Position numbers and translations under genes: made by a program. Under the pieces are notes generated by a model. That model made no database searches. It saw only the letters and a list, made by a program, of their open reading frames with translations, and had not been told where the DNA came from. A stretch of DNA of 64,000 nucleotides from a virus: positions 637 through 64,636 of IMG/VR virus record IMGVR_UViG_3300009661_000001. One strand, 5' to 3'. This document shows positions 22,288 through 41,926 of the stretch, in pieces. Position 1 is the stretch's first letter. Every line of letters starts with the position of its first letter.

Positions 22288-22338
22288 CCAAGGTAGCGGT
22301 GTAGTGGCACCGCAGGGCTGGCCGGCCTTTTCCCTTGG
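22288..22338 (-). ncRNA. Candidate structured element, copy 1 (three-way junction upstream of the GIY-YIG gene)
   Basis: CCAAGG-GAAAA-GGC(CGGCCA)GCC-CT-GCGGTG(CCACTA)CACCGC-TA-CCTTGG; same architecture at 41874..41926. Confidence 0.55.
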
Positions 22339-22397
22339 TTCATCATAGAAGCGAACAGTAAATACTGTTGCTCAATTAAATTGAAGAGGAATTCGGT

Positions 22398-22613
22398 ATG
22401 ACAACCCAACGCAAGACGGTTCAGGTTACCATAAGCAAGACCATACAAGTGGTTCAGTTTGAACCCATAGTAGTTGCCATAACGGAAACCGCTGAGGTCA
22501 GCAAGGGTGAAGACCACGAAGAAATTATCGCTGAACTGCACGAATCAGTTTCTGCTCAGGTTCATAAGTATATGAAGCGTGAACTCAAGCAATGGAAAAA
22601 GGACCATAAATGA
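22398..22613 (+). CDS. Hypothetical protein
   Basis: GAGG RBS; ATGA overlap with the next gene. Confidence 0.7.
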   Translation: MTTQRKTVQVTISKTIQVVQFEPIVVAITETAEVSKGEDHEEIIAELHESVSAQVHKYMKRELKQWKKDHK

Positions 22614-22918
22614 AAATTCCTCCTTGGCTTTCTAAGCTTTGGTATTGCGGGCATGAGGTTCCACCTCCGGCGCACAAGGTGGAGAATTTCAAGAAGGCTT
22701 TTGGTGGCGATGGTATCATTTATATGACCATCATGTGGGACGGTGTGTTTCTGTCTGTATCAGTCGGACACGCGGTTCTGCATACAGGATGCTACACCAA
22801 GACCTCAACTGTGGTATGTCCTCGTAATTCAGGCGTTCAAGATGAAATGCTTGTAATAGCGACGGAGGTATTAAAATATGGTAGCAAAATATTAACCAAA
22901 GACTGGATCAAAGCATGA
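22610..22918 (+). CDS. Hypothetical protein
   Basis: ATGA overlaps at both ends within the operon. Confidence 0.65.
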   Translation: MKIPPWLSKLWYCGHEVPPPAHKVENFKKAFGGDGIIYMTIMWDGVFLSVSVGHAVLHTGCYTKTSTVVCPRNSGVQDEMLVIATEVLKYGSKILTKDWIKA

Positions 22919-24009
22919 GCTTTCACACAAAATATCGACCAGAGAACCTCGAACAAATTATCGGTCATGAGGCAGCAGTAACACGAATGTTGGGCATGAT
23001 TAAGAGTGGTAAGGTACCAAGCTCAATCGCCATCTTCGGCCCCACGTCTGCAGGTAAGACAACGCTAGGTAGAGCGTTTGCTGCGCAGGTCAATGGTTTG
23101 GAACGTATTGGCCAGAGCAGGGACTACATAGAAACCAATGCAGCCGCTGATAAGTCAATCGAAAGCGTTCGGCAGATAGAACAGCAATCTAAATTTCGGG
23201 CGCAGCACAAACGTCGGTTTATTCTAATCGATGAAGCACATGGCCTACTCAGTAACCCGCAAGCAGCAAACGCGATCCTGAAGACCTTAGAGGAACCTGC
23301 CAAGGACACGACGTTTATTATCTGTTCAATGGAACCTGCGAAGTTCTCTGCTACAGAGACTGGTCGTGCCATGCTGAACCGTTGCTCGCAATTCGTTCTG
23401 AAGCCGCACTCGCCGAAAGAATTATTAAAGCAGGCAGTACGAATTGCAAAGCGGGAAAAAATGAGCTACGTACTGGAGGAAGGCTACACGGTATTGAAAG
23501 ACCTGGTGAGAGGTTGCTCGGAAATGCGTACGGTAGCGAATATGGTCGAGGCCCTCAGTCAGTATTACGACGGTCTAGAGAAGAAACCAAAGCGTTTGAC
23601 CGAGCAGCAGTTGTCCGACGTCATCGCGTCTACGGAAAGCGCTGACGATGCTTTGGCAGCTACCGTAATGGCGGCAGTCTACAACCTGCAGTTTAAGGTT
23701 GTTCAACGTAGTCTGTTGGATGTTCAGGAACCATTCACGTTCGTAAATAAGTTGATGTGGGCAAACAGTTACATCCTCAACAGTGCGGTATTGGAGGGCA
23801 AGCGACATCGTAAAGTGTGGCCATCAAAAACTGCAAAGGACCTGATGGCGGCAGCGGGTTCGGTTAAACTCGGTGTCTTGGCAGCTACGAATGCATGTTT
23901 GGTCGAAGCCAAAATTCAGATCATGGGTGCAGCGGCTTCACCTGAAGAGGTGTTGAGCTTCCGCCTCTACCGCCTCATCATAGAAATAAAAGCGATGGTG
24001 GAGAAATGA
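22915..24009 (+). CDS. Clamp-loader AAA+ subunit (DNA Pol III gamma/tau-like)
   Basis: KYRP..LEQIIGH, Walker A GPTSAGKTT, Walker B IDEAH, LKTLEEP, NRC motif. Confidence 0.9.
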   Translation: MSFHTKYRPENLEQIIGHEAAVTRMLGMIKSGKVPSSIAIFGPTSAGKTTLGRAFAAQVNGLERIGQSRDYIETNAAADKSIESVRQIEQQSKFRAQHKRRFILIDEAHGLLSNPQAANAILKTLEEPAKDTTFIICSMEPAKFSATETGRAMLNRCSQFVLKPHSPKELLKQAVRIAKREKMSYVLEEGYTVLKDLVRGCSEMRTVANMVEALSQYYDGLEKKPKRLTEQQLSDVIASTESADDALAATVMAAVYNLQFKVVQRSLLDVQEPFTFVNKLMWANSYILNSAVLEGKRHRKVWPSKTAKDLMAAAGSVKLGVLAATNACLVEAKIQIMGAAASPEEVLSFRLYRLIIEIKAMVEK

Positions 24010-24305
24010 AGATCAAGAAATTGGAGACGGTCAACCATACCTGTGTAGTCCCTATGGGATCGATCTTGATGAAGCTCAGCCAGCCTAAAGGATTGGGTAG
24101 AAACTTCGGCCAGTTAAAACCCGACGCTGAGTTTACATTGGTATGGTTGCTGAGCGACTGCAAAGAAAATCAGGTCATATCGATTGAACTTTTTCAAGAC
24201 GGCGATGAGGTGCCGTCTCATTATTGTTACCTTAGCGGTTTTAAGGTACAACACGCCCAGCATACATACTACCCGTTTGCCAAATACTTCATAACCTCGG
24301 ACTAA
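24006..24305 (+). CDS. Hypothetical protein
   Basis: Overlapping start in the operon; 99 aa. Confidence 0.6.
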   Translation: MKIKKLETVNHTCVVPMGSILMKLSQPKGLGRNFGQLKPDAEFTLVWLLSDCKENQVISIELFQDGDEVPSHYCYLSGFKVQHAQHTYYPFAKYFITSD

Positions 24306-24307
24306 AC

Positions 24308-26539
24308 ATGCTAGAACTAGAATCCCTGAGACTGAAAAACGCACTGTTGTTCAAAGACGTTGAGTTCAAATTCGTACCCGGCCTAACAACCATCTATGGC
24401 CTTAATAAGGTAAGCGGAAAGGCCACAGGAAACGGCAACGGCGCCGGTAAGTCGTTTTTCTTCTCGCAGATCAGGGAAATTCTACATGAAGAACCTATGG
24501 TGGGGCAGAAGACGGACGTACTGAAGACTGGTACACGAAGCCTGGGCATCAAGATAGAGGGTAAGCGGTACAAAATCGATAGGGCTAAAACGGGCCTGAA
24601 GATTATGAGCAAGGGTAAATCAAAATTCCGGACCAAGCCGTTAGCTAAGGCGTGGCTCAAAAAACTGCCACTTACAGCAGAGGACTTCGATACCTACGTT
24701 CACCTCGATGCGCGTGTACCCCATCCGTTGGTCATGGGTAAATCAACGGAGCGTAAGAAGTTCTTTACCTCCTTCTTTGGCCTTGACCGAATGGACGTTG
24801 AGCGTCGTCTGTTCATGGCAGAGCTTTCTAAACTTGCCAAAGTCAAAGCCGCCTACAAAGAACTACGGGTAGAATACGAGAAGGCTAAAGAAAAGATTGA
24901 GGGACTCGATCTTGATGCCCTAAAAACAAAGGGACGTAAGTTGCGGGCTATGCTCGACGATCTGCATGAAAAGAACAAACGCCTGCAGAACATCACGCAG
25001 TTGCTTGCATTTGAGCGCACCGCCAAGAAGCAGGTAGAGCAGTACCTGAAGCTTGTGGTGGACGACTTGTCGGCAGAACGCTTCGACGAATTAATGGCCG
25101 ACGTAAAATACAACATCAAGGTCAATAAAGCAGACTTAGCTGAGGCTCAAGCCTGGCGAGAGTACCAAAAAGATGTAAAGCGCTATCACAAGGCTCTAGA
25201 GAGGTTATCACCGTCAAGCCAGAAGATGCTGGAAAAGTATTCAGCAAAAGATATACGCAAAAAATTTGGTTCAGCGGAAGAAGATCGTATGCATGTGGCA
25301 GCTTCTGTTATGGAGACCGAGAACCGCATTAAGTATAACAAGAAGCTGACGAAACCCACAAAGGTGGAAGACCCACAGATCGACCCAAAAGAACTAAGGG
25401 CGAAGCTTGAGTCCCTAGAACACCGGTATGACCACGCACGCAAGTTCAAGACTGGTGTATGTGATACGTGCGGGCAGGAGGTCAAAACGGTAGACCCAAA
25501 AGAGTTGAAGCGCAAAATAACAAAAATAGAGGTCCAACTCGAAAACCACGAAGAATACAAAACTTACGTAAAAGAACGCGATGAGTATAAGAGGGCTGTG
25601 GCTGAGTTAGCCGAGGATGAACCACAGCTGGAGGTCCTTCAGGCAAAGCATGACAAGCTGCGTCGTCGCGCAAAGGTATTCGACGAGATACAAGGTTTGC
25701 CTGATAAACCCACGAAGTTTGAGGGTAAAAAGCTCGAAGTGGAAATTCTTGAGCGTATGCTTGAAGAAGACCGGGAGCGAGTTGCATTGCTGGAATTTAT
25801 ACAGCCTAATTTACAGACTATTGAAGAACTCGTTGCACTAACGGACAAGCAGCGAGGTGCGTATAAAATCGCACAGGCTTTGCAAGATAAGATCAACGAC
25901 TACCAAGAGAAGCTGTCGAAGGTCAAGGTCAAGGTTGAAATGGGGAAGGAAAATCTTGAGACCTATAATCGATTGCGCAAACGCCTAAAGGAAATGAAGG
26001 TAGAGCTTGAAGACGAAGAGGCATTGAAACTTCTGGTCGACAGTTATTCCGATAAGGGAGCCAAACGACTGGCCATCAAGGCAATCAGTAGTCGCTTGAT
26101 GACGGAGGTCAACAAGTACGCGCGAATAGTATTCGGTGAAGATTTCGATTTCTTCTTTAAGTGGGAGTCGTCCGATTTGGTGTTGGGCGTAAATCGTCGG
26201 TACGGTAAGAAGGTGATAACCTCCGATGTGCGTAAGCTGTCTGGTGCAGAGTCGAAGCTTTTCACTTACGTACTGATGGCAGCATCAATGACCTTCCGTT
26301 CAGAACGCAAGCGCTGCAACGTTTTGATACTGGATGAGCCGACTGCCAACTTTAGCCCCGAAACATTTGAAATGTTCAAGAAGCTTGTACCCATCCTGAA
26401 TAAGATATTCCCGACCATCATCATTATAACGCCTAAGAGCGATGAACGTTATGAAGGAGCCGACGAATGGACAGTCACCAAAACAAAAACAGAGGCCAAG
26501 TTAGTTCGTGGTCACCCTCATCAGATAAGGAACAAATGA
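24308..26539 (+). CDS. SbcC/Rad50/gp46-like ABC ATPase
   Basis: Walker A GNGAGKS, long coiled coil with CDTC zinc hook, signature LSGAE, Walker B ILDEP. Confidence 0.9.
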   Translation: MLELESLRLKNALLFKDVEFKFVPGLTTIYGLNKVSGKATGNGNGAGKSFFFSQIREILHEEPMVGQKTDVLKTGTRSLGIKIEGKRYKIDRAKTGLKIMSKGKSKFRTKPLAKAWLKKLPLTAEDFDTYVHLDARVPHPLVMGKSTERKKFFTSFFGLDRMDVERRLFMAELSKLAKVKAAYKELRVEYEKAKEKIEGLDLDALKTKGRKLRAMLDDLHEKNKRLQNITQLLAFERTAKKQVEQYLKLVVDDLSAERFDELMADVKYNIKVNKADLAEAQAWREYQKDVKRYHKALERLSPSSQKMLEKYSAKDIRKKFGSAEEDRMHVAASVMETENRIKYNKKLTKPTKVEDPQIDPKELRAKLESLEHRYDHARKFKTGVCDTCGQEVKTVDPKELKRKITKIEVQLENHEEYKTYVKERDEYKRAVAELAEDEPQLEVLQAKHDKLRRRAKVFDEIQGLPDKPTKFEGKKLEVEILERMLEEDRERVALLEFIQPNLQTIEELVALTDKQRGAYKIAQALQDKINDYQEKLSKVKVKVEMGKENLETYNRLRKRLKEMKVELEDEEALKLLVDSYSDKGAKRLAIKAISSRLMTEVNKYARIVFGEDFDFFFKWESSDLVLGVNRRYGKKVITSDVRKLSGAESKLFTYVLMAASMTFRSERKRCNVLILDEPTANFSPETFEMFKKLVPILNKIFPTIIIITPKSDERYEGADEWTVTKTKTEAKLVRGHPHQIRNK

Positions 26540-27237
26540 TTATCCACGCCTTCGGAGTTTTATGCTCACCCCTTGAACTGGGTAACGTTTTGAAGAAGCT
26601 CAAGATCAGTCACGCTATGGTTGATAACTCGTTGACGGCCCACACCAAGGTTCGGCATCTTACACCAGTTCAACCTGCGTGGCCCATCATCTTGCCTTCA
26701 GTGAAGGCTTGCTCTCGGTTTCGATCCAAGTACACGCGCCAAATTCTATTCATATGCGATTCACTATCGCAATTGAAGACCGCGAATGTAAAGATTCTGG
26801 ACCCAGTCGATATGATGCGTTCAGTTCAGAAGGCATTGGAGTATGCGGTTGCGAATCCCATAGAGTGGAAACTGGCTGTGGTAGAGCCAACACTCGATGA
26901 GTACGTCAAGCACGCTACCAAACCATCGTTTCTCAATGACGTGCAGACGGAGATTTACCGCATTACGCCCTACGATCTAAGAAAGGCAGTGCAAAGCGAA
27001 GTCATTGCGTACCTGGGTGGGTTGCTTGGCTACCGCAAATTGATGGCACGTTTAAACTCCAGCCACAAACTTACCAAGATAAAAACACTCGTGCTGGCAC
27101 CCAAATGTGCGGTACTCAAAGATGCTATCACCGCCTACCGACACGGCCAAGACCTCAAAGAAGTAGCAGAAGCCTACAAGGTGGAGACCTTCGAAATTAT
27201 GTATATCGTCAAATCATCGACCCAAACAAAACCTTAA
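26536..27237 (+). CDS. Hypothetical protein
   Basis: Likely start ATG 26536 (ATGA overlap with the SbcC-like stop, AAGGA RBS). Confidence 0.7.
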   Translation: MIIHAFGVLCSPLELGNVLKKLKISHAMVDNSLTAHTKVRHLTPVQPAWPIILPSVKACSRFRSKYTRQILFICDSLSQLKTANVKILDPVDMMRSVQKALEYAVANPIEWKLAVVEPTLDEYVKHATKPSFLNDVQTEIYRITPYDLRKAVQSEVIAYLGGLLGYRKLMARLNSSHKLTKIKTLVLAPKCAVLKDAITAYRHGQDLKEVAEAYKVETFEIMYIVKSSTQTKP

Positions 27238-27252
27238 TTTAATGGGGATACA

Positions 27253-27603
27253 ATGAGCATATTAACGGTTCAACTTGTCGATGGTCAAGGCACCCTTAAC
27301 GTTGCTGACAACACGTTAGTCTATAATGGCAAAGCGTTCGTCGATCCTTCGGATGCTTTCTTTGTGGCTCTCTACGCTATGCCGATTGATGCACTAAGCC
27401 TTCCGTTCGAGACACTGCCAGCACAAACGTTGGTAACGCAACAGGCTCAGTTAGCATGGGTACTTAGCTACCTTGCGACTGCCGAACCCACAACAGACCC
27501 ATCGTTGGTTGTTCAACCCGATCCTGCAAACGGGCAGTGTGTCTGTGGCGTAACTTGTCAGGGCACGCAGCTTTCCTACGTAAAAGTAACCACGGAGTCC
27601 TAA
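27253..27603 (+). CDS. Hypothetical protein
   Basis: GGGGA RBS; 116 aa. Confidence 0.7.
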   Translation: MSILTVQLVDGQGTLNVADNTLVYNGKAFVDPSDAFFVALYAMPIDALSLPFETLPAQTLVTQQAQLAWVLSYLATAEPTTDPSLVVQPDPANGQCVCGVTCQGTQLSYVKVTTES

Positions 27604-28404
27604 ATGAAACAGCCTTTCGCTACGAATAACAAACTTGGTCTGCCTTTGGTGCAGCCTTCGGCTCAGACTTTGCTGCCGATAATTTGCGGTGGTAATGGCA
27701 ACATCCAAGGCTTTTACCCTATTACCAAAACGACCTTCACTGGCTCCGAGACTAGCTACACCTTAAGTGACGGTCCTGTGCCGATTACGACGGTAACGCT
27801 GCCACAGAAAGTCAGTGACGGCACCGGCACACAGGGCGTTCCGCAGTACATGGCTGCTGTGTGGCCTGACGACGAAGAACACGACCGCCCATGGATAGGC
27901 TACAGCGACTTTGTCCCTATCGGAGCAGTAGGTTACCTTGGTGCTGACCACAAGATGCCGACACAGGGTTGGGGAACTGCGTATTACCTGGGCACTCTGG
28001 TTACCAACCTCAAGTTCAACATGGATGAACTCGTGCCTATTCCACCTACCACCACACCGCCTTCCGTTACACCAGCAACGCTGCGCTGGGTAACCTCAGT
28101 CGAGGCAGTATCACTTGATTCGCAATGCCCATTCATTGACTTTAACTGGGTGACGCTGTTCAAGGCGTCCAGTCCAAATGTCGATCCACTGCGCATCGAT
28201 GTAATAAGCAATCCGGCTGGTGGATTCTTCAAATCCACGCTGGTGGCAAATCCTGTCGTCTCTCCACTGGGTGGCACCTACTTCGATACGGTTCGCCTGA
28301 TTCGCCTGTTACCAGCCCCTGCAGGTACGTACACGTTCCAGTACGCGGTCACTGACACGCAGAACAACGTGACCCAAGTAACGCTGACTCTTACGGTGGT
28401 CTAA
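27604..28404 (+). CDS. Hypothetical beta-rich protein
   Basis: Starts immediately after the previous stop; Pro/Thr-rich with an Ig-like C-terminal pattern. Confidence 0.7.
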   Translation: MKQPFATNNKLGLPLVQPSAQTLLPIICGGNGNIQGFYPITKTTFTGSETSYTLSDGPVPITTVTLPQKVSDGTGTQGVPQYMAAVWPDDEEHDRPWIGYSDFVPIGAVGYLGADHKMPTQGWGTAYYLGTLVTNLKFNMDELVPIPPTTTPPSVTPATLRWVTSVEAVSLDSQCPFIDFNWVTLFKASSPNVDPLRIDVISNPAGGFFKSTLVANPVVSPLGGTYFDTVRLIRLLPAPAGTYTFQYAVTDTQNNVTQVTLTLTVV

Positions 28405-28407
28405 CGA

Positions 28408-28482
28408 ATGCTTCTTAAGGTTTGGCTCTCGTTTGGAGCCCTAGCGCTAGTCGCCTACTTGGTAGATCGATTCCGCAAATAA
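28408..28482 (+). CDS. Candidate 24-aa single-pass membrane peptide
   Basis: MLLKVWLSFGALALVAYLVDRFRK*; GGTGG 8 nt upstream. Confidence 0.4.
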   Translation: MLLKVWLSFGALALVAYLVDRFRK

Positions 28483-28580
28483 CAAGCCTGCTATCAGAAA
28501 TGGTAGCAGGCTCTGTCACCGCTTGCTTGATACTCTCGCGCTCAGGCATAGTAAATAATAGATTTCAACAGAAGAAAATC

Positions 28581-29666
28581 ATGCAAATCACAACCACTAC
28601 CGACTCCCTGCAAGAAGCAATCCGAATCGTTACCCGCTTGGCTCCGCCTGTAAGTGGTAACGTCGCAATCAATTCGGATGGTAAGAAGTTCATCATCACC
28701 TCCAACAGCGAAACCTCTAGCTGTTCGGTCATACTCCCTGGCGAAGTAGAAGGAAAAGCCAATACCTTCGCTGTGGGTATCCAGTCCATTCGTGACGCGA
28801 CCAAGGGCCGTAAGGAACTGGTCATCAGTTACGATAAGACGCTTTGCAAAATCAAGAGTGGTAATTATCGTTGCGATCTGCCAACAGTCGATGCTATGCA
28901 AATCGAAGAAGACACGGACGCAAAAGAAAAGAAAATCAAGGTCAGCTCTGAACAGGCGGTATGGTTACGGCAAATGGTCAGCACAGTCGGTCTAAAGCCA
29001 ACTACGCTGGTGGCCGCATTCATGCCCCTTAGTGTGAAGTTTACCAAGAAAGGTGCGTTCATCGCCTGCTACGATATCAATCATATGTCATTCGTTCACT
29101 CCAAAGAACTGGTGGGTGACATGGAAGTTAGTTTGCCTCTGGATATGTTCGCGTCAGTTCTAGATGCTTTCAAAGGTGAGTTCAAAATGGAACTCTCGCG
29201 CGCCAACCTGCACGTATCAAGCAAAACAGTCAAGGTGGTTATGGCCTTGCCTCAGGTAGAAGAAAATGCGCTGCAACTGCAAGAGGTCATAGACGTAGTT
29301 AAGGGTCTGAAAGACAGCAAGTCAGTTGACCTGGAAGTTGAGAAAGAGGCGTTCACGGCTTTCTTGGACAATGCGCGTGCTGTAGCTACCAAGGAGCGCA
29401 GTGAGGTTCAAATGAAAATCGGGGAAGGCAAGTTATCAATGGCAGTCGTAACTGCTAACGGCGCTATTCGTGCAGCAGTTAAGGCCACCAAGAGCAAGAA
29501 GGTAGAATGCATGATCGACTTCGAGTTCTTGGACGAAGCAGTTCGCAAGAGTCAAAATACGGTCAAGATGCGCGTTGTTGAACCGGACTTCGTTGCCTTT
29601 GATCTGAAAGTAGGTACGGTAATCGTGTCGCTTAATCAGGATCAGGAATCAGCAAATGAAGAGTGA
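28581..29666 (+). CDS. Sliding clamp (DNA Pol III beta-like)
   Basis: ~361 aa from ATG 28581 with beta-clamp-like length and pattern; same operon region as the clamp loader. Confidence 0.7.
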   Translation: MQITTTTDSLQEAIRIVTRLAPPVSGNVAINSDGKKFIITSNSETSSCSVILPGEVEGKANTFAVGIQSIRDATKGRKELVISYDKTLCKIKSGNYRCDLPTVDAMQIEEDTDAKEKKIKVSSEQAVWLRQMVSTVGLKPTTLVAAFMPLSVKFTKKGAFIACYDINHMSFVHSKELVGDMEVSLPLDMFASVLDAFKGEFKMELSRANLHVSSKTVKVVMALPQVEENALQLQEVIDVVKGLKDSKSVDLEVEKEAFTAFLDNARAVATKERSEVQMKIGEGKLSMAVVTANGAIRAAVKATKSKKVECMIDFEFLDEAVRKSQNTVKMRVVEPDFVAFDLKVGTVIVSLNQDQESANEE

Positions 29667-30042
29667 GTTCAAACTCTACATCGATGCTCCGGTTGGCGTC
29701 TTCTACGATGACGGAGAAGACGGTTTCTTCCTACCAATTTTGGGTATCAAACGCCTCACACCAATAAAGATCGTAAAGGAGCTTACGCTCCGCTGCATGT
29801 TCTCGGTCTTTATGTGCGAGGCAGAAGGACAACGATGCGGCTTCTATTTCGCATCCCAATTCAAGGTCAGCAATGAAGGCGGATACCTTATTACGTACAT
29901 GAACAGACGTAAAGAGGCGACTGAGGTTGAGACTTTGATTAAGACACCGGAGTTAATCCTCTACCATTATCCCAATAAGGGAACGTTGGCCATTTCGCCT
30001 AAGGTCAACGATGAAATAAACACAGTCTTCCTAGAACAATAG
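29656..30042 (+). CDS. Hypothetical protein
   Basis: Overlapping start; 128 aa. Confidence 0.65.
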   Translation: MKSEFKLYIDAPVGVFYDDGEDGFFLPILGIKRLTPIKIVKELTLRCMFSVFMCEAEGQRCGFYFASQFKVSNEGGYLITYMNRRKEATEVETLIKTPELILYHYPNKGTLAISPKVNDEINTVFLEQ

Positions 30043-30051
30043 AGGTACACC

Positions 30052-30573: not shown

Positions 30574-30989
30574 ACATCGCTCATCTGCTCCCACCAGGTT
30601 ATGCGATATCGAGGGATCAGGCGAACGATGGAACGGGTATGCAATGGCACACTACTTTGTTCTACATCCCGCAGCCACGTGTTCTGCTTGCAATCAACGA
30701 AGACGGTAAGTCAATGCGGTTGGGTGCACCGACAGCAGACGACATTGAGGTCATTGGTCAGATTCTCAAGGCCTTCATAAGCTACGAGAAAAAGGTGACC
30801 TGTTATGATCGTATTCCCGAAGTAATGGATATCCTCAAAAGTATAACAAAAGTGAGTCTGCGGTTAACCACACGGGTCAACAGCGGTAGAATGATGGGAG
30901 CGTCGATGGGTATTGACGGTCTCGATTCGATACTACAATATGTCAACCACAGCGTGTTGGCTGCCGAAAGTTATCTGACCATATCATGA
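30570..30989 (+). CDS. Hypothetical protein
   Basis: ATGA overlaps in the operon. Confidence 0.65.
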   Translation: MNIAHLLPPGYAISRDQANDGTGMQWHTTLFYIPQPRVLLAINEDGKSMRLGAPTADDIEVIGQILKAFISYEKKVTCYDRIPEVMDILKSITKVSLRLTTRVNSGRMMGASMGIDGLDSILQYVNHSVLAAESYLTIS

Positions 30990-32717: not shown

Positions 32718-32720
32718 GCC

Positions 32721-33107: not shown

Positions 33108-33121
33108 GTCCAGGAGAATGT

Positions 33122-33757: not shown

Positions 33758-33758
33758 C

Positions 33759-35090
33759 ATGGGACTAAAGTTAGCAAGTCCAAAAGCAGAGCTAAACGTA
33801 TTACGGGGATTGCTCCACAAAGACCCAAAGATAAGTGGCACACTTATCGGAGCAGTCGATGAGACTTATTTCTACTCGCCAGAATCAATCGAGATTTACG
33901 AAGCGGTGATGCGCAACATGAGCGTCAATGGTCGGAACCCAACATACCGGATTCTGATTGAGGACCCAGAGTTAAGCGATGAGGCCCGGGATCACCTAAA
34001 GGATTCCTCGGCCAATGTGCAGTCGATTGCGGATGCCAACAAAGCCGCCACGATATTGAACAAGTATAGACAGCGCAGGGGTCTCTACAACATCGCAGCC
34101 GATATAGGGCAGCAGTTCAAGAAGTCCAAGGTCGACATCGATAGCCTGATGCATCGTATGACGACGGCAATCAACATCGTTCAAGCCAAGAAGGCAACCG
34201 ACGATGATTTTCTTCACTTCGGGTTAAACAATAACTCGAAAAAGATGGTCGATGAGATTCTTGATGGGGACCGTTCGGAAGACATCATCCCAACAGGCAT
34301 CGAAGAATTCGACAAAGAAGCTGGTGGATTTGCCCGAGGCTCGCTGGTAACGATCGGCTCGAACTCTGGAGGGGGTAAGTCGATATGTGCTAGTGCCTTA
34401 GCAGTAAATATGGCAGAAGCAGGATACAAAGTGCTTTTAGTTCCTTTGGAAATGTCAAAGAATGAAATGACGGCGCGTATTCTAGCCAATATCACCAATA
34501 CAGACTTTAGTCCACTGTGGCTTCAAAAGCTATCAGAGGAACAAAAAGAGAAGGTACGTTCGCGGCATCGCAAGTGGGTAAAGCGGGCGAAAAAGCGTGG
34601 TGGGCGTTACACCATCTTTAAACCGAAGCAAGACCTGACCATCGAAGAAATCATGGCGTCGATTAACGCCTTTGATGTCGATGTCGTCATCATCGATTAC
34701 ATTAGTTTGCTCAAAGGTGTAGACGGTGACGATCAAGTAAAGGCTTTAGGTCGAGCAGCGCGCTACGGTAAGATCAGCGCTGAGAATAGCAACAGGGTTC
34801 ACATTCTCGTTTGTCAGGTCGATGACAACGGGAAGATCAAATACGCCAGGGCTATTTCGGAACACAGTTCCAATAGCTGGCTATGGATATCGACGCCGGA
34901 GATTAAGAACGACGGCTGGGTTGTTAAAGTTGAACAGCCTAAGTCACGTAACAGTTTAAGCTTCCCCTTCTTGATGCGTATCGATGGTTCAAAGATGCGT
35001 GTCTATGGTGTGGGTATGCAAGAGACAGAATCTCTGGCGAAGGTAAAGAAAGGGAAAGAACTTCCCAATTTGGCAACCGCCGATGTTTAA
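33759..35090 (+). CDS. dnaB: Replicative DNA helicase, DnaB family
   Basis: IPTGIEEFD, GSLVTIGSNSGGGKS, LEMS..EM..RIL, IIDYISLL motifs. Confidence 0.92.
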   Translation: MGLKLASPKAELNVLRGLLHKDPKISGTLIGAVDETYFYSPESIEIYEAVMRNMSVNGRNPTYRILIEDPELSDEARDHLKDSSANVQSIADANKAATILNKYRQRRGLYNIAADIGQQFKKSKVDIDSLMHRMTTAINIVQAKKATDDDFLHFGLNNNSKKMVDEILDGDRSEDIIPTGIEEFDKEAGGFARGSLVTIGSNSGGGKSICASALAVNMAEAGYKVLLVPLEMSKNEMTARILANITNTDFSPLWLQKLSEEQKEKVRSRHRKWVKRAKKRGGRYTIFKPKQDLTIEEIMASINAFDVDVVIIDYISLLKGVDGDDQVKALGRAARYGKISAENSNRVHILVCQVDDNGKIKYARAISEHSSNSWLWISTPEIKNDGWVVKVEQPKSRNSLSFPFLMRIDGSKMRVYGVGMQETESLAKVKKGKELPNLATADV

Positions 35091-35107
35091 CTTTAAGAGG
35101 AAATAAA

Positions 35108-35632
35108 ATGAGCGATCAAAACCAAGCAGCAAACCAAGAAGTGGCAGCCGATCAACAAATCACCGTTCGCATCGGTTTCGAGCAGGCACTGGATCAAGCG
35201 TCGCCAACGTGGCGTGAGAACTGGAGCCAGGCCGCCGTGGACAACGCACGATTCTTCTACAACGCTGGCGTGCGTGATACCTCGATCTTCGCCTCGTCGG
35301 CTGTTCAAAACATGAACCAAGCCATCGCGAACCTGCAAAGCGGTTACCAGTCGATCAACGAACTGGCACAACGTCCTCAACAAGGCGGCGTGATCCCACC
35401 GGAGATTGCAGCCGCTGCGGCCACCGAAGAAACACCAGCGGAAGACACCTCGGCCGAGTACGATGCGGTTCAAGCCGAACACGATGCAGTGGTGAAACAG
35501 CAAAGTGAAGACGAAACGTCGGCTGATCTGGACCAGGCGCAGCACGACGAATCGCAGGCTGCTGAAACGCCGGTTCCTGCCGCAGAAGAAGCGCCAGTGC
35601 CTGCAGCTACGGAAGCACCAGCCGCGCAGTAA
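35108..35632 (+). CDS. Acidic Ala/Glu-rich protein
   Basis: GAGGA RBS; low-complexity acidic C-terminus. Confidence 0.75.
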   Translation: MSDQNQAANQEVAADQQITVRIGFEQALDQASPTWRENWSQAAVDNARFFYNAGVRDTSIFASSAVQNMNQAIANLQSGYQSINELAQRPQQGGVIPPEIAAAAATEETPAEDTSAEYDAVQAEHDAVVKQQSEDETSADLDQAQHDESQAAETPVPAAEEAPVPAATEAPAAQ

Positions 35633-35733
35633 AAAGTGCACCATACAGCCTGGTTCTAGCTATCGTAGACCAGGTCTGGCACGCTGTTTTTAACGCTCAT
35701 TAGCTATGCTACGGGCGCTGGTATAGACGTGCA

Positions 35734-35767: not shown

Positions 35768-35783
35768 CTTACCTCTGTACTAC

Positions 35784-36566
35784 TTACATTGCCATCGTGC
35801 CTTCGACCTGCTCAATGACCTCACGCAGATACGCCGGAGCGTACCCAAACAGCTTTTGGTAGTAAGTGATTTCCTGGTCGGCGTCTGCGCGCGAAATACC
35901 GGTAGCCAGAATACGCTTGTGTACGTCGTTAGGAATCTGGATGCCTTGCTCACCTGTAGCAACCACGGTAACGACTTGATCGAAATCAATCACCGTTGCC
36001 TGGCGATCCGAAGCTGCCACGACTTTCAGCACTTTCTTGCCAGCGTTCACGCCGACGCAGAAGCCGTAGTCCATGTCGCCCGAAGCCGACGCGAAGGCGA
36101 CGAATTCACGTTTGGCGACGGAGGCCAGCGCGATGTTGTTCAAACGTGGAACGTTGCCGCGCGGATTGGTTGCCGCCGAAACGAGTTCCGACAGGTCCTC
36201 GTTACCGTGACGTGCCAGGTAGGTACCAGAGGCGCCCTTGCGAACTTCCCACAGCGACTTGTCTTTGTCATCCATCATCATGTTGTTCGACATCACCTTG
36301 TAGCTGGCTTTCAGTTCCTTTGGCTCGACAACGCGCACTTCTTGGTTTGCACGGATGAAGCCCAATGCAACACCGGCGCGAACGTGCGTGAACGAGTTCT
36401 CGATTGGTGTAGCCAGGTTGTCGAGTTGTTCGCTCAACGAAGCCGTTATCGCCTGACGGTCGAATTTGCCTGTGAAGGAAATTACCACTTTAGCGATCTT
36501 GTTTGCCATGATCTTGAAGTCGGTGATGGCTACAGTGTTAGGATCAATACCTTTAAAGTCAATCAT
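35784..36566 (-). CDS. Hypothetical virion-cluster protein
   Basis: GGAG RBS; strong codon bias like the head/tail genes. Confidence 0.7.
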   Translation of the reverse strand: MIDFKGIDPNTVAITDFKIMANKIAKVVISFTGKFDRQAITASLSEQLDNLATPIENSFTHVRAGVALGFIRANQEVRVVEPKELKASYKVMSNNMMMDDKDKSLWEVRKGASGTYLARHGNEDLSELVSAATNPRGNVPRLNNIALASVAKREFVAFASASGDMDYGFCVGVNAGKKVLKVVAASDRQATVIDFDQVVTVVATGEQGIQIPNDVHKRILATGISRADADQEITYYQKLFGYAPAYLREVIEQVEGTMAM

Positions 36567-36638
36567 GTTACACTCCTAGTCTTTGACGCTCTATGGCGGG
36601 AGAGTTGAGTAAGCCTCGTAAGTGAGGTCTTAGTAAAA

Positions 36639-37037
36639 TTATTTCTTGCGTATTACGGAGATACGCCATTGCGTTGGATCGCCACCAAGCATTGCTCTGC
36701 TAGGATGCGGATCAAAGAAGGGCTTACCGTTCTTGCCCACTATAGCATGATAAGTGCCGTTACCTCTTGGAGACGGACCACTCATTTCGTGGTACAAGTC
36801 TGGGTCACCTTCACGCCAGTGATAGATCAGACTTACGTTAGGCAGAAATTCGTAGCCTCTGTTTTCAAGCCAATCATACAGCCTGTTCCAAAAGCCATGA
36901 ACTTCGTCTGCCAACTGCATGAAGTGAGGGACCTCCGCGATTGGTAGCTCAAGCAGCGATGCTATCACTGCCCGAGCGCAATCACCTTGTATACCCTTTT
37001 CACTATCGTGCAGAAACTCTTGATCCTGCGGTATCAT
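36639..37037 (-). CDS. Hypothetical protein, possible papain-like (C39-type) fold
   Basis: QGDCARAVIASLL, YHAIV and FFDPHP give a Cys/His/Asp arrangement. Confidence 0.45.
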   Translation of the reverse strand: MIPQDQEFLHDSEKGIQGDCARAVIASLLELPIAEVPHFMQLADEVHGFWNRLYDWLENRGYEFLPNVSLIYHWREGDPDLYHEMSGPSPRGNGTYHAIVGKNGKPFFDPHPSRAMLGGDPTQWRISVIRKK

Positions 37038-37540
37038 TACTGGTCGTCCCAGAAGTCAAACGCGAAGGTGATGGACAGCGAAACCAAACCTGATTCAGCG
37101 CCGTTCAGTGCCACCTCAGCTATAACGTCTGGCCACATACCAGTGACACTGCAGGTTTTCGTTACAGCTGGTATGTCGTTGTAAACCACGACCTGTGAGT
37201 TGACTTTGTACGCGGAAGCCAGCATACCACTGTTGTTGACCCAGTCGCGCATTGTGTGCCAGCGACGGAACTTCTCGCGCGTTGCCCAATCGCTGGTTTC
37301 CAAGAAGGTAGCAGAAATCGAGTGCGAGTAGGTTTTGCGACCAGCGTAGATCAGTTGCACACCATGCAGAGGAACCTCTACGCGGTCGATGGTGGAACCT
37401 GGCATATCGGTCGTCTGACATTTGAACGTCAGGTCGCGCGTATCCGAGGACCCCGGAATGGTTGGCAAGAACAGATCGAAGTTCCAAGACTGTGCGGGGT
37501 CTTGAATGCTCTGAACGTCTTGCAATGAAGTACGAGCCAT
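37037..37540 (-). CDS. Tail tube protein (T4 gp19-like)
   Basis: WNFDLF, CQTTDMPG...VEV...YAGR..Y, F.FDFW pattern; follows the sheath gene. Confidence 0.85.
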   Translation of the reverse strand: MARTSLQDVQSIQDPAQSWNFDLFLPTIPGSSDTRDLTFKCQTTDMPGSTIDRVEVPLHGVQLIYAGRKTYSHSISATFLETSDWATREKFRRWHTMRDWVNNSGMLASAYKVNSQVVVYNDIPAVTKTCSVTGMWPDVIAEVALNGAESGLVSLSITFAFDFWDDQ

Positions 37541-37559
37541 ATTTTACTCCTTGTTTAGC

Positions 37560-37579
37560 GGGAGGCCCGAAGACCTCCC
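37560..37579 (-). promoter_or_regulatory. UUCG-capped hairpin between sheath and tube genes
   Basis: GGGAGGTC-TTCG-GGCCTCCC with no U-tract; possible mRNA stabiliser or processing site. Confidence 0.5.
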
Positions 37580-37585
37580 TTGGAA

Positions 37586-39529
37586 TTAGCTTGGTTGACC
37601 GTTCACTTGTTGCAGCACCTCGGAGAACGAAACGCCTTGTTTCGAGATAACCATCTGCAACTGAATTTCGTGAATTGGAATCACCGGAACGATGACGACC
37701 GTTACCACACGAACACCTGAATTCAACTGAGCCGCCGAGTTGTTCGATGAATCGCTGACCACATCGAAGCTAGAAATGCCGCGTGCGTTCTGTATCAATT
37801 GCAGGTACTGCGAACACGAGGTAACGATCTGCCGACCGGTGAAATCATCATCGGGTTCTTCCAAGCTATACAGCAGGAAGGAGTAGAGCGAGGTCTTGAT
37901 GACGTTGATGATACGACGCACCGAAATCCAGCTCAAGGCCGATGGCTGTGCAGCCAAAGTCGTTTGCTCCCACAGCGCGATACCCTGACCGATGAAAGTC
38001 CGGGTGTAGTTGACCTGCGCTTGGAACAGTGCCGTCGATTCGCCGTCATCGAAGGTATAGCGCGTCTTCAAGACGTTGACGATACCACGATTCAGACCCG
38101 CTATCGAGAAACTTGGATTGGCGACACGGTCCGTGCGGGCGCACAGTGCGGCAGCCCAACCAGAGAACGGTACGAATTGCTGCTTGCCGTTGATCAGGTC
38201 GGCTTCCAAAACGTCTGGGTTGAACAGACCGCTGTAAGTCGAGTTCAGGTTCAACTGCAGGTTGCGATAGTTAATCGCTGCCTGGAATTGCTGCGAGTTG
38301 GATGGTACGTCCAACATTGCCACCGTATCACCACGACCTTGGGCCAAAGTATCCATTGCCAACTGCACCGTTGGGGTCGCGTGACCACCGTTAATCAACG
38401 TGTTGATTTTGTACAGTTGCTTGTTGGCAAAAACGCCGTAAGCAGCTGCCACGTCAAAGGCCGTAGGCGCCGTACCGCTGTCGCCTGACGTCATCAGCGC
38501 CGGCAAACTGGAATTGATTTCAGGCACCGTCAACAACGCTGGTGTGTTATTTGTCACCAGCATGTAGTTCGAGTAACCGTTGATGCGACTTTCGAGTTCC
38601 GTCGAAGTACCGGTCGAATCGATACCGTCTTGCAGGGTACACAAGAACGATTCGACTGGCGAGTAGACCGAGCGCGTCGTATCGTAAACGTTGACCGTGA
38701 ACTGCGGGTTCGGTGGCGGCAGATTTGCAGGGCTCGTAATCGGCAGGTGCGTGGTATCTGGCGTGATGGCGCCTGTATCGGTAAACGTGTAGGTACCTTG
38801 ACCCACAGTCATCAACTCACCTACGGTAGTAGTATCGCGACCGTAAATGACGTAGCCGATTGCCAGTGGAACTGGGTCCCAGGTCAACACATTGGAGTTC
38901 GTTACCGAGACACCCGCGATAACGATGACGACCGGCGCGGAGGCAAGTGTTTCGCCTGCCTGACCTAGGGCAGAAACTTGATATTGGTAAGTCGCTGGCG
39001 GAAGTACACCTCCGGTAGTGCTGCTACTGCCCAGGAAGTTGGCTGGTGTCTCGATGTTATTCGACACGATTTCCACCGACGTCGTACCAGCGTAAGACCC
39101 AGGGCCGTGTATCGGGTAGAACAGCGCGACTGGTGTATCGGATGGTGCTGGCATCAGAACGCTCCAATTAGGCAGCGTAGGATCAGGGATACCGACGGGA
39201 GCAGACTCCAACGCAGACACCGTACCGTTAGAGTACAGGGTTACGCCACCATAGACTGCATCGGAATGGACGCCACGGCAAGCCCACAGCGCGTTGCCTT
39301 CCTTGAAGTAATCCAGACCACAGTAGACGTCGAACGAGATTTGCGCGTTCGGGTTACCATACTCTGCGATGTAGTCGTCAGCGTTCGTGAAGTATTTCGG
39401 GAACGGCGAACCTTGATTGGACACCACCACTTGGCAGGCAACTGACGATGATGCCGAAGTGATAACCTGACTCAGGTTAATTTCTTGGATGCGAACATCC
39501 GATCCTTGTTGTTGAAGGATGGTAGACAT
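37586..39529 (-). CDS. Contractile tail sheath protein
   Basis: GSDVRIQEINLSQ N-terminus; P.SG..A....RTD, AGLNRG, VRRIINVIK..L...LL..L.EP.D C-terminal motifs. Confidence 0.92.
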   Translation of the reverse strand: MSTILQQQGSDVRIQEINLSQVITSASSSVACQVVVSNQGSPFPKYFTNADDYIAEYGNPNAQISFDVYCGLDYFKEGNALWACRGVHSDAVYGGVTLYSNGTVSALESAPVGIPDPTLPNWSVLMPAPSDTPVALFYPIHGPGSYAGTTSVEIVSNNIETPANFLGSSSTTGGVLPPATYQYQVSALGQAGETLASAPVVIVIAGVSVTNSNVLTWDPVPLAIGYVIYGRDTTTVGELMTVGQGTYTFTDTGAITPDTTHLPITSPANLPPPNPQFTVNVYDTTRSVYSPVESFLCTLQDGIDSTGTSTELESRINGYSNYMLVTNNTPALLTVPEINSSLPALMTSGDSGTAPTAFDVAAAYGVFANKQLYKINTLINGGHATPTVQLAMDTLAQGRGDTVAMLDVPSNSQQFQAAINYRNLQLNLNSTYSGLFNPDVLEADLINGKQQFVPFSGWAAALCARTDRVANPSFSIAGLNRGIVNVLKTRYTFDDGESTALFQAQVNYTRTFIGQGIALWEQTTLAAQPSALSWISVRRIINVIKTSLYSFLLYSLEEPDDDFTGRQIVTSCSQYLQLIQNARGISSFDVVSDSSNNSAAQLNSGVRVVTVVIVPVIPIHEIQLQMVISKQGVSFSEVLQQVNGQPS

Positions 39530-39530
39530 T

Positions 39531-39713
39531 TTAGACCTCCTTCACAGTTACGGTATTAGGATGCTTTTGCATCCAACGCGGGTCAACGTCCATGCCGTCC
39601 CGCAACGTGGCACGGCTGCGAGCCATGATCTGAACAGAATCGAGTTTGCCATCGCTGTGGCGCACATCAACCTGCTGAGTCGTCCGCGTCAAGTTAATGA
39701 CTAGCTTCTTCAT
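39531..39713 (-). CDS. Small hypothetical protein
   Basis: GAGGAG RBS; 60 aa. Confidence 0.7.
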   Translation of the reverse strand: MKKLVINLTRTTQQVDVRHSDGKLDSVQIMARSRATLRDGMDVDPRWMQKHPNTVTVKEV

Positions 39714-39724
39714 TGTAGCTCCTC

Positions 39725-40354
39725 TTAATTGAAGGGAAAGAACTGGGCGCCTACGCCTGCTACCGCCATGTGCATTTCAACCGTGGTTACTACCCCTTGT
39801 GTCGCCAACATTTCTTCTGAGGTGTATCCGTGAACAGTGAGCGTTGAGGTGACTAAATACTTACTCTCCGCCTCAACCTTGTTCTCTCCTTGCGGAGTTT
39901 GAACCTGCTCGCTTAAAGTCAGCGATATGGGGAACTGTAAGCGCCCGTAGTCCACATTAAATTTAAGCCAGCCTGCTCGTCTTGCGAACAACCAGCGCTT
40001 CTGAAATCCCATCACGGAGCCCTGCCCGCCCAAGAACTTATTGGTAACAAATTCGACTTCAAAATCGAAATTCGTCGGCAGCACACGTACAGCTTGCCCT
40101 TGATTCTCGTTTACCGATACCATTAAGCCCTTTCGCACCAAGCGATTAGGATTATAGGAATCAGTATTGTGGCTCAAGGTAGTGGGGACCAAAAACATAT
40201 AAGGGTATACGATATCACGCCCATTGAACATACGCTGCAAGGCCGCTTGCTTATCATTCGCTGGCGTAATGATTGCAGGGCAACCAAAGACTTGTATTGC
40301 CCTCAGTACCAGCCCATCAAAGACAAAGTTCTCAATCGGTAGGACTGTATCCAT
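39725..40354 (-). CDS. Probable tail completion/terminator protein
   Basis: Position upstream of the sheath; YPY..L, beta-rich fold pattern. Confidence 0.45.
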   Translation of the reverse strand: MDTVLPIENFVFDGLVLRAIQVFGCPAIITPANDKQAALQRMFNGRDIVYPYMFLVPTTLSHNTDSYNPNRLVRKGLMVSVNENQGQAVRVLPTNFDFEVEFVTNKFLGGQGSVMGFQKRWLFARRAGWLKFNVDYGRLQFPISLTLSEQVQTPQGENKVEAESKYLVTSTLTVHGYTSEEMLATQGVVTTVEMHMAVAGVGAQFFPFN

Positions 40355-40370
40355 TTTAGCTCCACAAATG

Positions 40371-40405
40371 GAAAAAGCCGGCCAGCGAAGATGCGCGGCC
40401 GGCTT
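40371..40405 (-). terminator. Intrinsic terminator
   Basis: AAGCCGGCC...GGCCGGCTT stem followed by a T-tract on the minus strand. Confidence 0.75.
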
Positions 40406-40412
40406 CTGGGAC

Positions 40413-40832
40413 TTACTTGCGTTTGGCTTTGTTCGAGCCTTTGGTCATCGCAGTCAGCGTGGCCGCGAAGGCGTCGTGGTCGAATTCTTCCTCTTCGTCC
40501 TCGCCTTCTTCGTCCAGACCGCTCATCACTTCTTCGGTCTCGCCTTCCTCGTCTTCACCACCACCGACCAGGTCTTCCATGTCCTCGTCGGAACCCATGT
40601 CGTCTTCTTCCTCATCGGAAGCACGCACAGCTTTCTTGGCGGCGGCGATTCGAGCAGCTTCCATCTTCTGGAACGCCTGCTTGTTACTGGCTTCCAGAAC
40701 GTGCAGTGCGTAACGCGAATCTGGGGCCGCGATGGCTTTGGCGAACAGTTTTGCTGCCATTGCCATGTTACCTTTGCGACCGGAGGCCAGAGCCAGGGTC
40801 ACGAAGTCCAGGCTTTTGCTATATTGCTTCAT
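40413..40832 (-). CDS. Acidic head-cluster protein
   Basis: Likely start ATG 40832 (AAGGAG RBS); Asp/Glu-rich C-terminal half. Confidence 0.7.
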   Translation of the reverse strand: MKQYSKSLDFVTLALASGRKGNMAMAAKLFAKAIAAPDSRYALHVLEASNKQAFQKMEAARIAAAKKAVRASDEEEDDMGSDEDMEDLVGGGEDEEGETEEVMSGLDEEGEDEEEEFDHDAFAATLTAMTKGSNKAKRK

Positions 40833-40842
40833 CTTATGCTCC

Positions 40843-41859
40843 TTAGTGGATGTTTTGAATTCGTACCTGTTCAGTCTTGGTCCAGAACTTGAATACTCTA
40901 TGAAATTTGCCTTTGATGAGAACGTATATTCTGTAGTCATCAAAGTACCTCATAGCAGCTTCATACTTAGCGCGGTTCTCTATTAAAGCTTCTTCCTTCG
41001 TCATCCAGTTATAGTTTGCTAGACCCAATGATGCCAGGTCTTTGACTTCAACCATTGTTCTACCTACAGCAAAATCAGGAGTGTACTTCGCCATGCATTT
41101 CTTGATTGGGTTATAGTAAAGAACCTTATACTCGTTTGGTTCATATCTTACTTTATCAAGTGGTACACCGCTATCCTTCAAATACTGCATGAACCTAACT
41201 TCAGTTTTCGATCTAACTATAATCGGCTTACCATTGAACTTACCTCTGTACCAAATACCAGTTGGTCTACAAGTTTGACAGCTTCTGATTACCCCGTACG
41301 GGGTTGTTACGCATTCGCGGGGAACTCTGTTTATATGCCCACATTTAATATGCTTGACCTTCAAATGACCATCAGCCCTTCGGCCAGATTTATATTCATC
41401 TAATAGTTGCATACCTCGAGACAGGGCTATTTTGCAGGCCTCTTCGTGAGAGTAACCAAGTTCCCTACATTCACCACATGGGACTTTTGAACCCTTCAAA
41501 CAGTCTGGTGAAACACGGAATTTATTCCCACACTTATGCTGGTACACATTCTTTCGCTTTGCACCGACAAAGGTAACACAGGTGTAATCTGTATAACCCA
41601 ATTCATGTAGTTCTTCCGTATGCGTCTCAGCAGTTCGTTTTATGCGGTAGAATTTGCGCTTGTGAGTACACGAACATACAGGTCCAGCTCTACCTTGTGA
41701 GTACCTTACTGTTCTATATAGTCCACAATCATTGCATGCCACAATTAATTCACGCTCACCAAGTATTTTAATGAGCTTGTAGTTCAGTCTGGTTGAATGT
41801 TTATCGGCAAACGCCTTAGCACTCATTGGTTTTTGTCCGCTCATTGTTCTATCCAACAA
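40843..41859 (-). mobile_element. Free-standing endonuclease: zinc-ribbon repeats plus a TnsA/gp4-like PD-(D/E)xK domain
   Basis: Several CxxC / HxCG units, then RSKTE...YEP...YTPDF....VEVK; visibly AT-richer than flanking capsid genes; probable start ATG 41844. Confidence 0.7.
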
Positions 41860-41873
41860 TGGTTATAAAGGAT

Positions 41874-41926
41874 GAGGTAGAAAGAACCGGATAGGATTCA
41901 GTCAGAGCCGCTAAGCCTTTTCCCTC
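41874..41926 (-). ncRNA. Candidate structured element, copy 2 (three-way junction upstream of the PD-(D/E)xK endonuclease gene)
   Basis: GAGG-GAAAA-GGC(TTAGCG)GCT-CT-GACTGAATC(CTATCC)GGTTCTTTC-TA-CCTC. Confidence 0.55.

Follow-up and report, generated by a model that had tools for sequence, protein, structure and literature searches.

The SAM-II, SAM-V, and preQ1-II riboswitches fold as H-type pseudoknots whose second helix includes nucleotides of the Shine-Dalgarno sequence. To our knowledge, little is known outside the T-even phages about what prevents free-standing homing endonucleases from doing harm. Within the T-even group, translation of the homing-endonuclease genes I-TevI, I-TevII, I-TevIII, segB, and mobE (Aeh1) is repressed by RNA structures that sequester the ribosome-binding site, and these are simple, local hairpins that share no sequence and are relieved by a late promoter inside the structure (PMC2988022). 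Here we describe a conserved RNA leader that precedes two nuclease genes in a 64,000-nucleotide (nt) stretch of an uncultured phage genome (positions 637 to 64,636 of the IMG/VR record IMGVR_UViG_3300009661_000001, the whole of which stretch is referred to as the window). The element would serve the same purpose as the T-even hairpins and have the same target, that is, the Shine-Dalgarno sequence of a homing-endonuclease gene carried on the read-through transcripts of its neighbors (PMC2988022), and as in those leaders the Shine-Dalgarno is paired within the predicted structure. It differs from them in that a conserved three-way junction is predicted to bring a distant loop into pseudoknot pairing with the Shine-Dalgarno. 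The three riboswitches likewise place a pseudoknot over the Shine-Dalgarno, but their architecture and consensus are unrelated to those of the element, and no Rfam match to them was obtained.

Comparison across members confirmed the element as a real folded RNA leader, a matter that the two window copies alone do not settle, and we class it as a new RNA family whose probable function is of a known type. Four pattern scans that specified the junction and helix P2 only, followed by filtering, yielded 33 distinct members in contigs of uncultured viruses and metagenomes. A scan of IMG/VR with GGGAAAAGGC-N6-GCYCT returned 99 loci, mostly chance matches, among which eight distinct sequences share the architecture with entirely different P1 and P3 helices; five more members came from a metagenome pattern scan, and two further scans (GGU in P2; C-G closing pair) contributed 16 new ones. 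These variants, together with the GAAAAAA and UCU strands in the closest relative of the window phage (G001), were found with a covariance model. The initial annotation had called for further homologs and covariation, and both proved plentiful. RNAalifold recovered the junction from a plain MAFFT alignment, and the core of the consensus (GAAAA, GGY-N6-GCY, CU, and UA) is fixed, with full covariation of P1 and P3 around it. Among the first 17 members, pairing is kept in 97.7% of cells and 9 of 13 pairs show double changes (53 such cells), helix statistics that are inflated, and partly circular, through the P1/P3 pairing filter used in member selection. In the same 17 members the observed covariation score was reached by none of 500 shuffles, all slid controls collapsed, and variation in P2 was limited to G-U pairs. 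That G-U pairs are compatible with the endonuclease sense strand only, as had been noted from the two window copies, holds across these members, with seven such cells in P2 alone.

The loop of P2 is confined to discrete types (CGGCCA, UUAGCG, UGGCCA, UUGCAA, and GGCGAC). For this loop no consistent cis partner was found within ±120 nt, and no consistent complementarity to the P3 loop (L3) was apparent by eye. Carrying genomes have one or two copies of the element, which is common to phages whose capsid proteins are as little as 36–39% identical and is also present in G017, a record without a capsid match. Among bacterial genomes, no convincing member was seen among the first 120 matches listed from a pattern scan, and our covariance model R2 gave 0 matches in 151 Gammaproteobacteria genomes. 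The element had been put forward as unannotated and indeed no Rfam 15 family fits: there was no family match at the gathering threshold over the whole window, and a permissive E-value at both loci and at 22240-22400 gave only noise (sR48, eeev_FSE, TMV_UPD-PK3). Several candidates were rejected. Weak matches (18 bits) of model R1 in the coding region of G008, G009, and G010 were judged false and vanish with R2; the match at L483 29-92, close to the end of a viral contig that is unrelated, is a chance pattern match to a 22-nt sequence, GGAAAAGGTCCCTAGGCCCTGG, repeated three times in tandem; and an upstream motif, TATGA, is shared by some members, is not general, and was dropped.

By themselves, the two window copies are weak evidence. 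Re-reading of the minus strand at 22338-22288 and 41926-41874 reproduced the fold described in the initial annotation, including the 2x2 internal loop in P3 of copy 2 (Table 1), and the shared 11-mer AGGGAAAAGGC does end 70 nt before both ATG 22254 and ATG 41844. With one mismatch or fewer this 11-mer was found twice in comparison to 0.98 times expected, however, and 30 of 100 shuffles also reached two. For copy 1 the minimum free energy (MFE) structure is the three-way junction, but with a z-score of only -0.95; for copy 2 it is not the junction (z = +0.22). The pair is therefore unconvincing alone, because the 11-mer is within chance and the MFE structure of copy 2 is a different one. The ortholog of copy 2 in contig L018 has a perfect 9-bp P3 with compensatory changes. 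A 104-codon open reading frame (ORF) with a GTG start (22227-22541, minus strand) overlaps the structured leader, reading through copy 1 into the beginning of the GIY-YIG gene; no family matched it, and most likely it is not a gene.

Table 1. Elements, loop/partner pairs, and associated features (window coordinates; pairs from other contigs are listed at the end).
Feature	Position	Strand	Details
Copy 1, three-way junction core	22288..22338	minus	MFE fold is the junction; 66 bits with model R2
Copy 1, P1	22338-22333 / 22293-22288	minus	CCAAGG / CCTTGG
Copy 1, J1/2	22332-22328	minus	GAAAA
Copy 1, P2	22327-22325 / 22318-22316	minus	GGC / GCC; loop CGGCCA 22324-22319
Copy 1, J2/3 and J3/1	22315-22314; 22295-22294	minus	CU; UA
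Copy 1, P3	22313-22308 / 22301-22296	minus	GCGGTG / CACCGC; loop L3 CCACUA 22307-22302
Copy 1, anti-L3 site	22270-22265	minus	UAGUGG, exact complement of L3 CCACUA
Copy 1, Shine-Dalgarno	22266-22263	minus	GGAG, overlapped by anti-L3; start ATG 22254-22252
GIY-YIG gene behind copy 1	21238..22254	minus	338 residues, free-standing; PF22945 LEM-3-like GIY-YIG, E = 1.2e-13
Cassette 1	about 21245..22397	minus	~59-nt 5' flank, element, leader, GIY-YIG ORF; approximate extent from comparison with G001 (blastn, tblastx)
Copy 2, three-way junction core	41874..41926	minus	39.5 bits with model R2
Copy 2, P1	41926-41923 / 41877-41874	minus	GAGG / CCTC
Copy 2, junction strands	41922-41918; 41905-41904; 41879-41878	minus	GAAAA; CU; UA
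Copy 2, P2	41917-41915 / 41908-41906	minus	GGC / GCU; loop UUAGCG 41914-41909
Copy 2, P3	41903-41895 / 41888-41880	minus	GACTGAATC / GGTTCTTTC, 2x2 internal loop; L3 CUAUCC 41894-41889
Copy 2, anti-L3 site	41849..41854	minus	GGAUAG, exact complement of L3; itself a weak Shine-Dalgarno
Second nuclease gene, behind copy 2	40843..41844	minus	333 residues from ATG 41844, free-standing; phrog_559, E = 6e-10
Terminator-like hairpin	41941..41961	minus	AGAACCGC-UUCG-CGCGGUUCU; follows the major capsid gene (41982-43067) and lies 14 nt ahead of copy 2
Cassette 2	40858..41994	minus	between capsid-gene terminator region and ribosome-binding site of next gene
Loop/partner, copy 1 (win1)			L3 CCACUA; partner UAGUGG(AG)
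Loop/partner, copy 2 (win2)			L3 CUAUCC; partner GGAUAG
Loop/partner, L018 (copy 2 ortholog)			L3 CUGUCC; partner GGACAG
Loop/partner, L003			L3 CCACAU; partner AUGUGG
Loop/partner, L090			L3 CUAGUAC; partner GUACUAG
Loop/partner, L126			L3 CCGCAAU; partner AUUGCGG

The key feature of the family, and one that is new relative to the initial annotation, is the complementarity of the P3 loop to the Shine-Dalgarno of the gene downstream. Of the 32 members with loops of 5-7 nt, 29 have an exact, full-length reverse complement of the loop downstream, in a stretch that overlaps the Shine-Dalgarno at its 5' edge, whereas an equal-length upstream control contained an exact complement in one member and permutation of the loops among members gave a mean of 1.46 and a maximum of 7 (10,000 trials). 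The loops comprise 29 distinct sequences, and relative to copy 2 the loop and partner of L018 are a covarying pair. The rule was derived on 17 members and then tested on 16 found later, in 15 of which it was upheld. Complementarity is limited to the loop and does not extend into the strands of P3; the 3' end of the complement lies 4-14 nt before the start codon, and the linker that precedes the partner (7-23 nt) is nearly free of G. In nested-fold ensembles L3 had a mean unpaired probability of 0.81 and its partner one of 0.57. Since the loop of copy 2 is complementary to a sequence 4 nt ahead of ATG 41844-41842, we consider this codon to be the start of the second nuclease gene, which had been a preference, not a proven start, in the initial annotation. 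The stretch from Shine-Dalgarno to start is alike in many cassettes (GGRGUAUC(A)AAAUG or GGGGUUGYCAAAUG, in copy 1, L034, L145, L116, L579, L567, L613, L628, and L637) despite their different nuclease families, which suggests that the whole leader may be exchanged as one module.

In every member a same-strand ORF with a Shine-Dalgarno starts downstream of the element, its start codon being 69-94 nt after GAAAA in the first 17 members, and these ORFs link the element to at least four nuclease families. The downstream gene is of the GIY-YIG type, by Pfam or by an obvious N-terminal motif, for copy 1, L095, L090, L383, L302, L126, L566, L591, L613, and L628; those of L144 (without a family match) and L369 are GIY-YIG-like by N-terminal sequence only. 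EndoVII/HNH genes follow the element in L116, L145, L425, L469, L470, L554, L567, L585, and L637, DUF7487 or phrog_559/681 endonuclease genes follow copy 2 and its counterparts in L018, L603, L607, the second G001 cassette, and Burkholderia phage BCSR5, and a ParB-like nuclease gene follows that of L044. The gene behind copy 1, which is the sole LEM-3-like GIY-YIG gene in the contig, has the identity given in the initial annotation (Table 1). The PD-(D/E)xK assignment made there for the second gene is a lead only: its product has N-terminal zinc-ribbon-like repeats and a C-terminal PD-(D/E)xK-like part (PDF...EVK) resembling DUF7487, TnsA-like, and endonuclease I clusters (ESM Atlas features, score 0.90-0.92), but it had no Pfam match and a search of solved structures returned nothing. 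A single-protein search of IMG/VR found no close relatives of either window nuclease. In the 295-kb phage G021 (L112 3789-5764) the element stands before a portal gene, and what complements its loop is an incomplete match situated 10 nt ahead of the Shine-Dalgarno; this copy could have been left behind by a cassette since lost, or it could have been recruited as a regulator.

Both window copies lie within segments that are missing from G001, whose capsid protein is 93% identical to that of the window phage and in which the flanks of both segments are conserved. Cassette 1 is antisense between plus-strand genes (21026-21244 and 22398-22613) that abut in G001. In place of cassette 2, G001 has 43 bp; at this site the capsid stop codon and the terminator hairpin (the counterpart of that at 41941..41961) are followed by ~20 nt leading to the AAGGAGCAT ribosome-binding site of the next gene; in the window, AAGGAGCAT overlaps the stop codon of the inserted nuclease gene. 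Presence or absence between conserved neighbors is as known for free-standing homing endonuclease cassettes, and the window segments are predicted to be cassettes of this kind. The element, whose presence at the empty sites of a relative would have counted against the initial annotation, is absent from both. G001 has an element of its own, more divergent (GAAAAAA, GGU, UCU, and a 10-bp P1), with a 361-residue DUF7487 gene after a tail-tube-like gene (L389 403-1573 = G001:C1:30402-31572), and this cassette is missing in the window. Because the element is missing from both empty sites while G001 has its own cassette elsewhere, it travels with the nuclease genes and does not belong to the host phage's own signals. 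Three further relatives (G003, G005, and G014) lack the element and are also devoid of LEM-3-type GIY-YIG and EndoVII genes.

Two cultured jumbo phages carry the element, Erwinia phage pEa_SNUABM_22 and BCSR5. In pEa_SNUABM_22, evidently the same genome as IMG/VR record G020, it lies between a capsid-like gene and a GIY-YIG gene (pEaSNUABM22_00143) that are both annotated as hypothetical. The BCSR5 element has a P1 of 13 bp and an L3 (CUCGUAU) with the partner AUACGAG before a DUF7487 gene (QRE00280.1), and it occupies the same position as the element and DUF7487 gene of G001, suggesting that the site after the tube-like gene may be a recurrent homing site.

The closest Rfam family is int-alpA (RF02996), a candidate structured RNA of unknown function, whose consensus we read from instances found by sampling 151 Gammaproteobacteria genomes. 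RF02996 matched at E ≤ 0.001 in 12 of the 151 genomes (11 genomes over the family cut-off), and as a positive control this gave 19 matches of 33.6-76 bits, all but one over the 35.8-bit gathering threshold; up to 4 copies occur per genome, and two copies are near tmRNA or tRNA genes. In int-alpA the layout is P1-UA-P2(4 bp)-GAAAA-P3(5 bp, 9-nt loop)-CU-P1', followed by a tail that ends in AAGG and can pair with the P3 loop, whereas that of the element is P1-GAAAA-P2-CU-P3-UA-P1', so that the linear order of int-alpA is not found in the element. The same three junction strands, with the same cyclic order and flanking G/C pairs, are nonetheless present in both, rotated by one helix. In both, the helices also take up their roles in one order (a closing stem, then a short GC hairpin, then the hairpin that pairs with the Shine-Dalgarno) and a small three-way junction is followed by a short single-stranded tail. 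The short GC-rich hairpin of int-alpA, whose loop is of 4-5 nt, is like P2 of the element. The last-hairpin loop of int-alpA complements the downstream Shine-Dalgarno (CCUUCA/UGAAGG and CCCUUA/UAAGGG, instances L402-L407), with a 6-nt match in its 9-nt loop as opposed to loops of 5-7 nt that are wholly complementary in the element, and its linker is ~10 nt and U-rich as opposed to 7-23 nt and G-poor.

RF02996 had no match at E up to 10 in G000, G001, G010, G020, and G021, which have seven elements, and a permissive cmscan of L001/L002 and window 22240-22400 also gave none; a noise match in G010 is a terminator. Nor did the model match E. coli K-12, either near intA/alpA or on the whole chromosome. 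The element is thus not a member of int-alpA, because no linear alignment of the two exists, the Rfam model is blind to the element, and R2 finds none in the same 151 genomes. We regard it as a sister or permuted variant of int-alpA that probably works in the same way, and the shared core may reflect common descent or convergence. The pairing of the int-alpA loop with AAGG supports a cis translational role for that family over the small RNA type that Rfam assigns to it.

We consider it likely, on the strength of the loop/Shine-Dalgarno rule, that the element attenuates translation of the downstream nuclease by masking its ribosome-binding site. The leader folds into the junction, in which the fixed strands GAAAA, CU, and UA connect the closing P1 with P2, which is short and GC-rich, and with P3, which varies. 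In such a mechanism the P3 loop would pair past the linker with the 5-7 nt at the 5' edge of the Shine-Dalgarno to create an H-type pseudoknot. Masking would keep down the level of a nuclease that could harm both the phage and its host genome, and it would act on transcripts from an own promoter or on read-through from a strong neighbor such as the capsid gene. We infer that L3 and its partner do pair in vivo, with reduced translation as the outcome; the junction and P2, both conserved, would presumably scaffold the pseudoknot and not sense a signal, and GAAAA might dock by A-minor contacts on the variable pseudoknot helix in a sequence-independent manner. The cis-regulatory role was one of three proposed in the initial annotation and is the one that gains support here.

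Several observations weigh against masking as just described. The junction is the MFE structure of only 18 of the 33 cores, isolated loop/partner duplexes are of modest stability (-3 to -8.6 kcal/mol), and three of the 32 members have no exact complement. Of the Shine-Dalgarno, no more than the first 2-3 nt are part of the helix, and complementarity of the whole loop implies connecting loops of zero length, so not all 5-7 pairs are compatible with a closed P3. The element stands before the portal gene in L112 and before small unknown ORFs in L525, L587, L310, and L325. The selection filter bears on the helix statistics as stated above, but the loop/Shine-Dalgarno and gene-linkage results are not inflated by it. 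Finally, simple masking leaves the strong conservation of the junction strands and the discrete P2 loop types unexplained.

This last point is where a sensor could enter: the same pseudoknot would form, but the core (GAAAA/CU/UA, P2, and its loop) would bind a small molecule, an ion, or a protein of host or phage that stabilises or melts the fold, such that the nuclease is made only in a particular state of the infected cell, as with a riboswitch or an autoregulatory operator. The junction and P2 are conserved far beyond what masking needs, the few P2 loop types lack a cis partner, and the recurrence of the three junction strands in int-alpA, in very different hosts, would suit either a universal partner or a self-contained fold; the differing nuclease families make autoregulation by the nuclease itself unlikely. 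Yet no result points to a ligand or protein, the core is small (9 junction nt), the rotated helix roles of int-alpA are hard to fit to one fixed binding pocket, and A-rich conserved strands are also expected of a purely structural scaffold. We accordingly regard sensing as doubtful, the modest credence we give it being contained within that given to masking overall. The broader idea, that the core is a portable sensor module (riboswitch-like or protein-binding) carried by many kinds of selfish and accessory phage gene and rotated in int-alpA, is equally tentative; if true, translation of the carrier genes would be restricted to one physiological condition of the infected cell, and the module would have been circularly rearranged in evolution with its output, a loop hiding the ribosome-binding site, kept. 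Processing or stability is a less probable role again, and we think it improbable. The element would then be a self-cleavage or RNase site, or a protective 5'-terminal structure, by which the nuclease mRNA is set apart from the transcript upstream, and the loop/Shine-Dalgarno match would be secondary. In sense-oriented cassettes the element does follow the terminator of the highly expressed capsid gene, and in L034 a sigma-70-like promoter, read by eye, would start a transcript just before P1. Soil metatranscriptome contigs that run unbroken through the capsid gene, element, and nuclease gene are a weak argument, as they show neither RNA ends nor strand. No Rfam ribozyme model matches at E up to 10, however, and a hammerhead was rejected, GAAAA being present but the core CUGANGA absent, the other strands being CU and UA, and no Rfam hammerhead model matching; the perfectly covarying loop/Shine-Dalgarno pairing would also go unexplained.

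Two further readings have very little in their favor. That the element is released as a small RNA acting on other targets in trans is suggested by the Rfam type of int-alpA ("Gene; sRNA"), but we find it highly improbable, as the element always stands 69-94 nt before a same-strand start codon (first 17 members), no terminator separates it from the gene, and its loop complements, with a member-specific sequence, the Shine-Dalgarno of its own gene. To a role at the DNA level, as a promoter, an endonuclease target or recognition site, or the end of a mobile cassette, we give the least credence of all. The element is near the 5' boundary of both inserted segments, and the antisense cassette 1 must have its own promoter within ~60 nt upstream. 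Against this, the helix sequences are free to vary with pairing kept, G-U pairs are valid on one strand only, the loop matches a translation signal of an mRNA, and a shared DNA target is not expected for unrelated nuclease families; the strand-specific covariation largely refutes the reading. With regard to a promoter, no motif between the loop and the Shine-Dalgarno is conserved in all members and no sigma-70-type site is predicted at either window site, although the sigma-70 consensus used may not represent the promoter type of these phages. The mobility end proposed in the initial annotation is not supported either: from the edge of the inserted segment to the start of the element there are 14 nt for copy 2 and ~59 nt for copy 1, and the element is constrained at the level of RNA and on one strand only.

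One portable RNA leader thus serves four or more nuclease families that are unrelated to each other, in phages as different as soil jumbo phages and those of Erwinia and Burkholderia, under a simple testable rule in which the loop is an anti-Shine-Dalgarno. If masking is correct, a function would be suggested for an orphan Rfam family now typed as a small RNA, whose junction core in its rotated arrangement is invisible to covariance models. The motif would mark homing-endonuclease cassettes and true start codons in unannotated phage genomes, and the element could be of practical use as a compact, tunable translation attenuator. The two cultured carriers make experiments possible.

The IMG/VR contig that contains the window is 77.7 kb long, with an estimated completeness of 33%, and comes from an uncultured jumbo myovirus with genes for sheath, clamp-loader, and SbcC-like proteins. 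Its distant relatives include Ralstonia phage phiRSL1 and BCSR5, and megablast against cultured phages gave no match. The window phage is contained in soil metagenome and metatranscriptome runs. In three soil RNA libraries the mean contig depth is 3- to 14-fold higher over the structural (minus-strand) module (35770-42099) than over the replication module (22100-35730), whereas in one DNA run depth is flat, ~11, across both. Because of this difference the late region is probably transcribed in the soil samples. At window 41833-41834 all of the RNA and DNA runs differ from the window at two adjacent bases (T>A and T>G, plus strand), which alters codon 4 of the second nuclease gene from CAA to CCT on the coding strand; this is a strain variant or an assembly difference.

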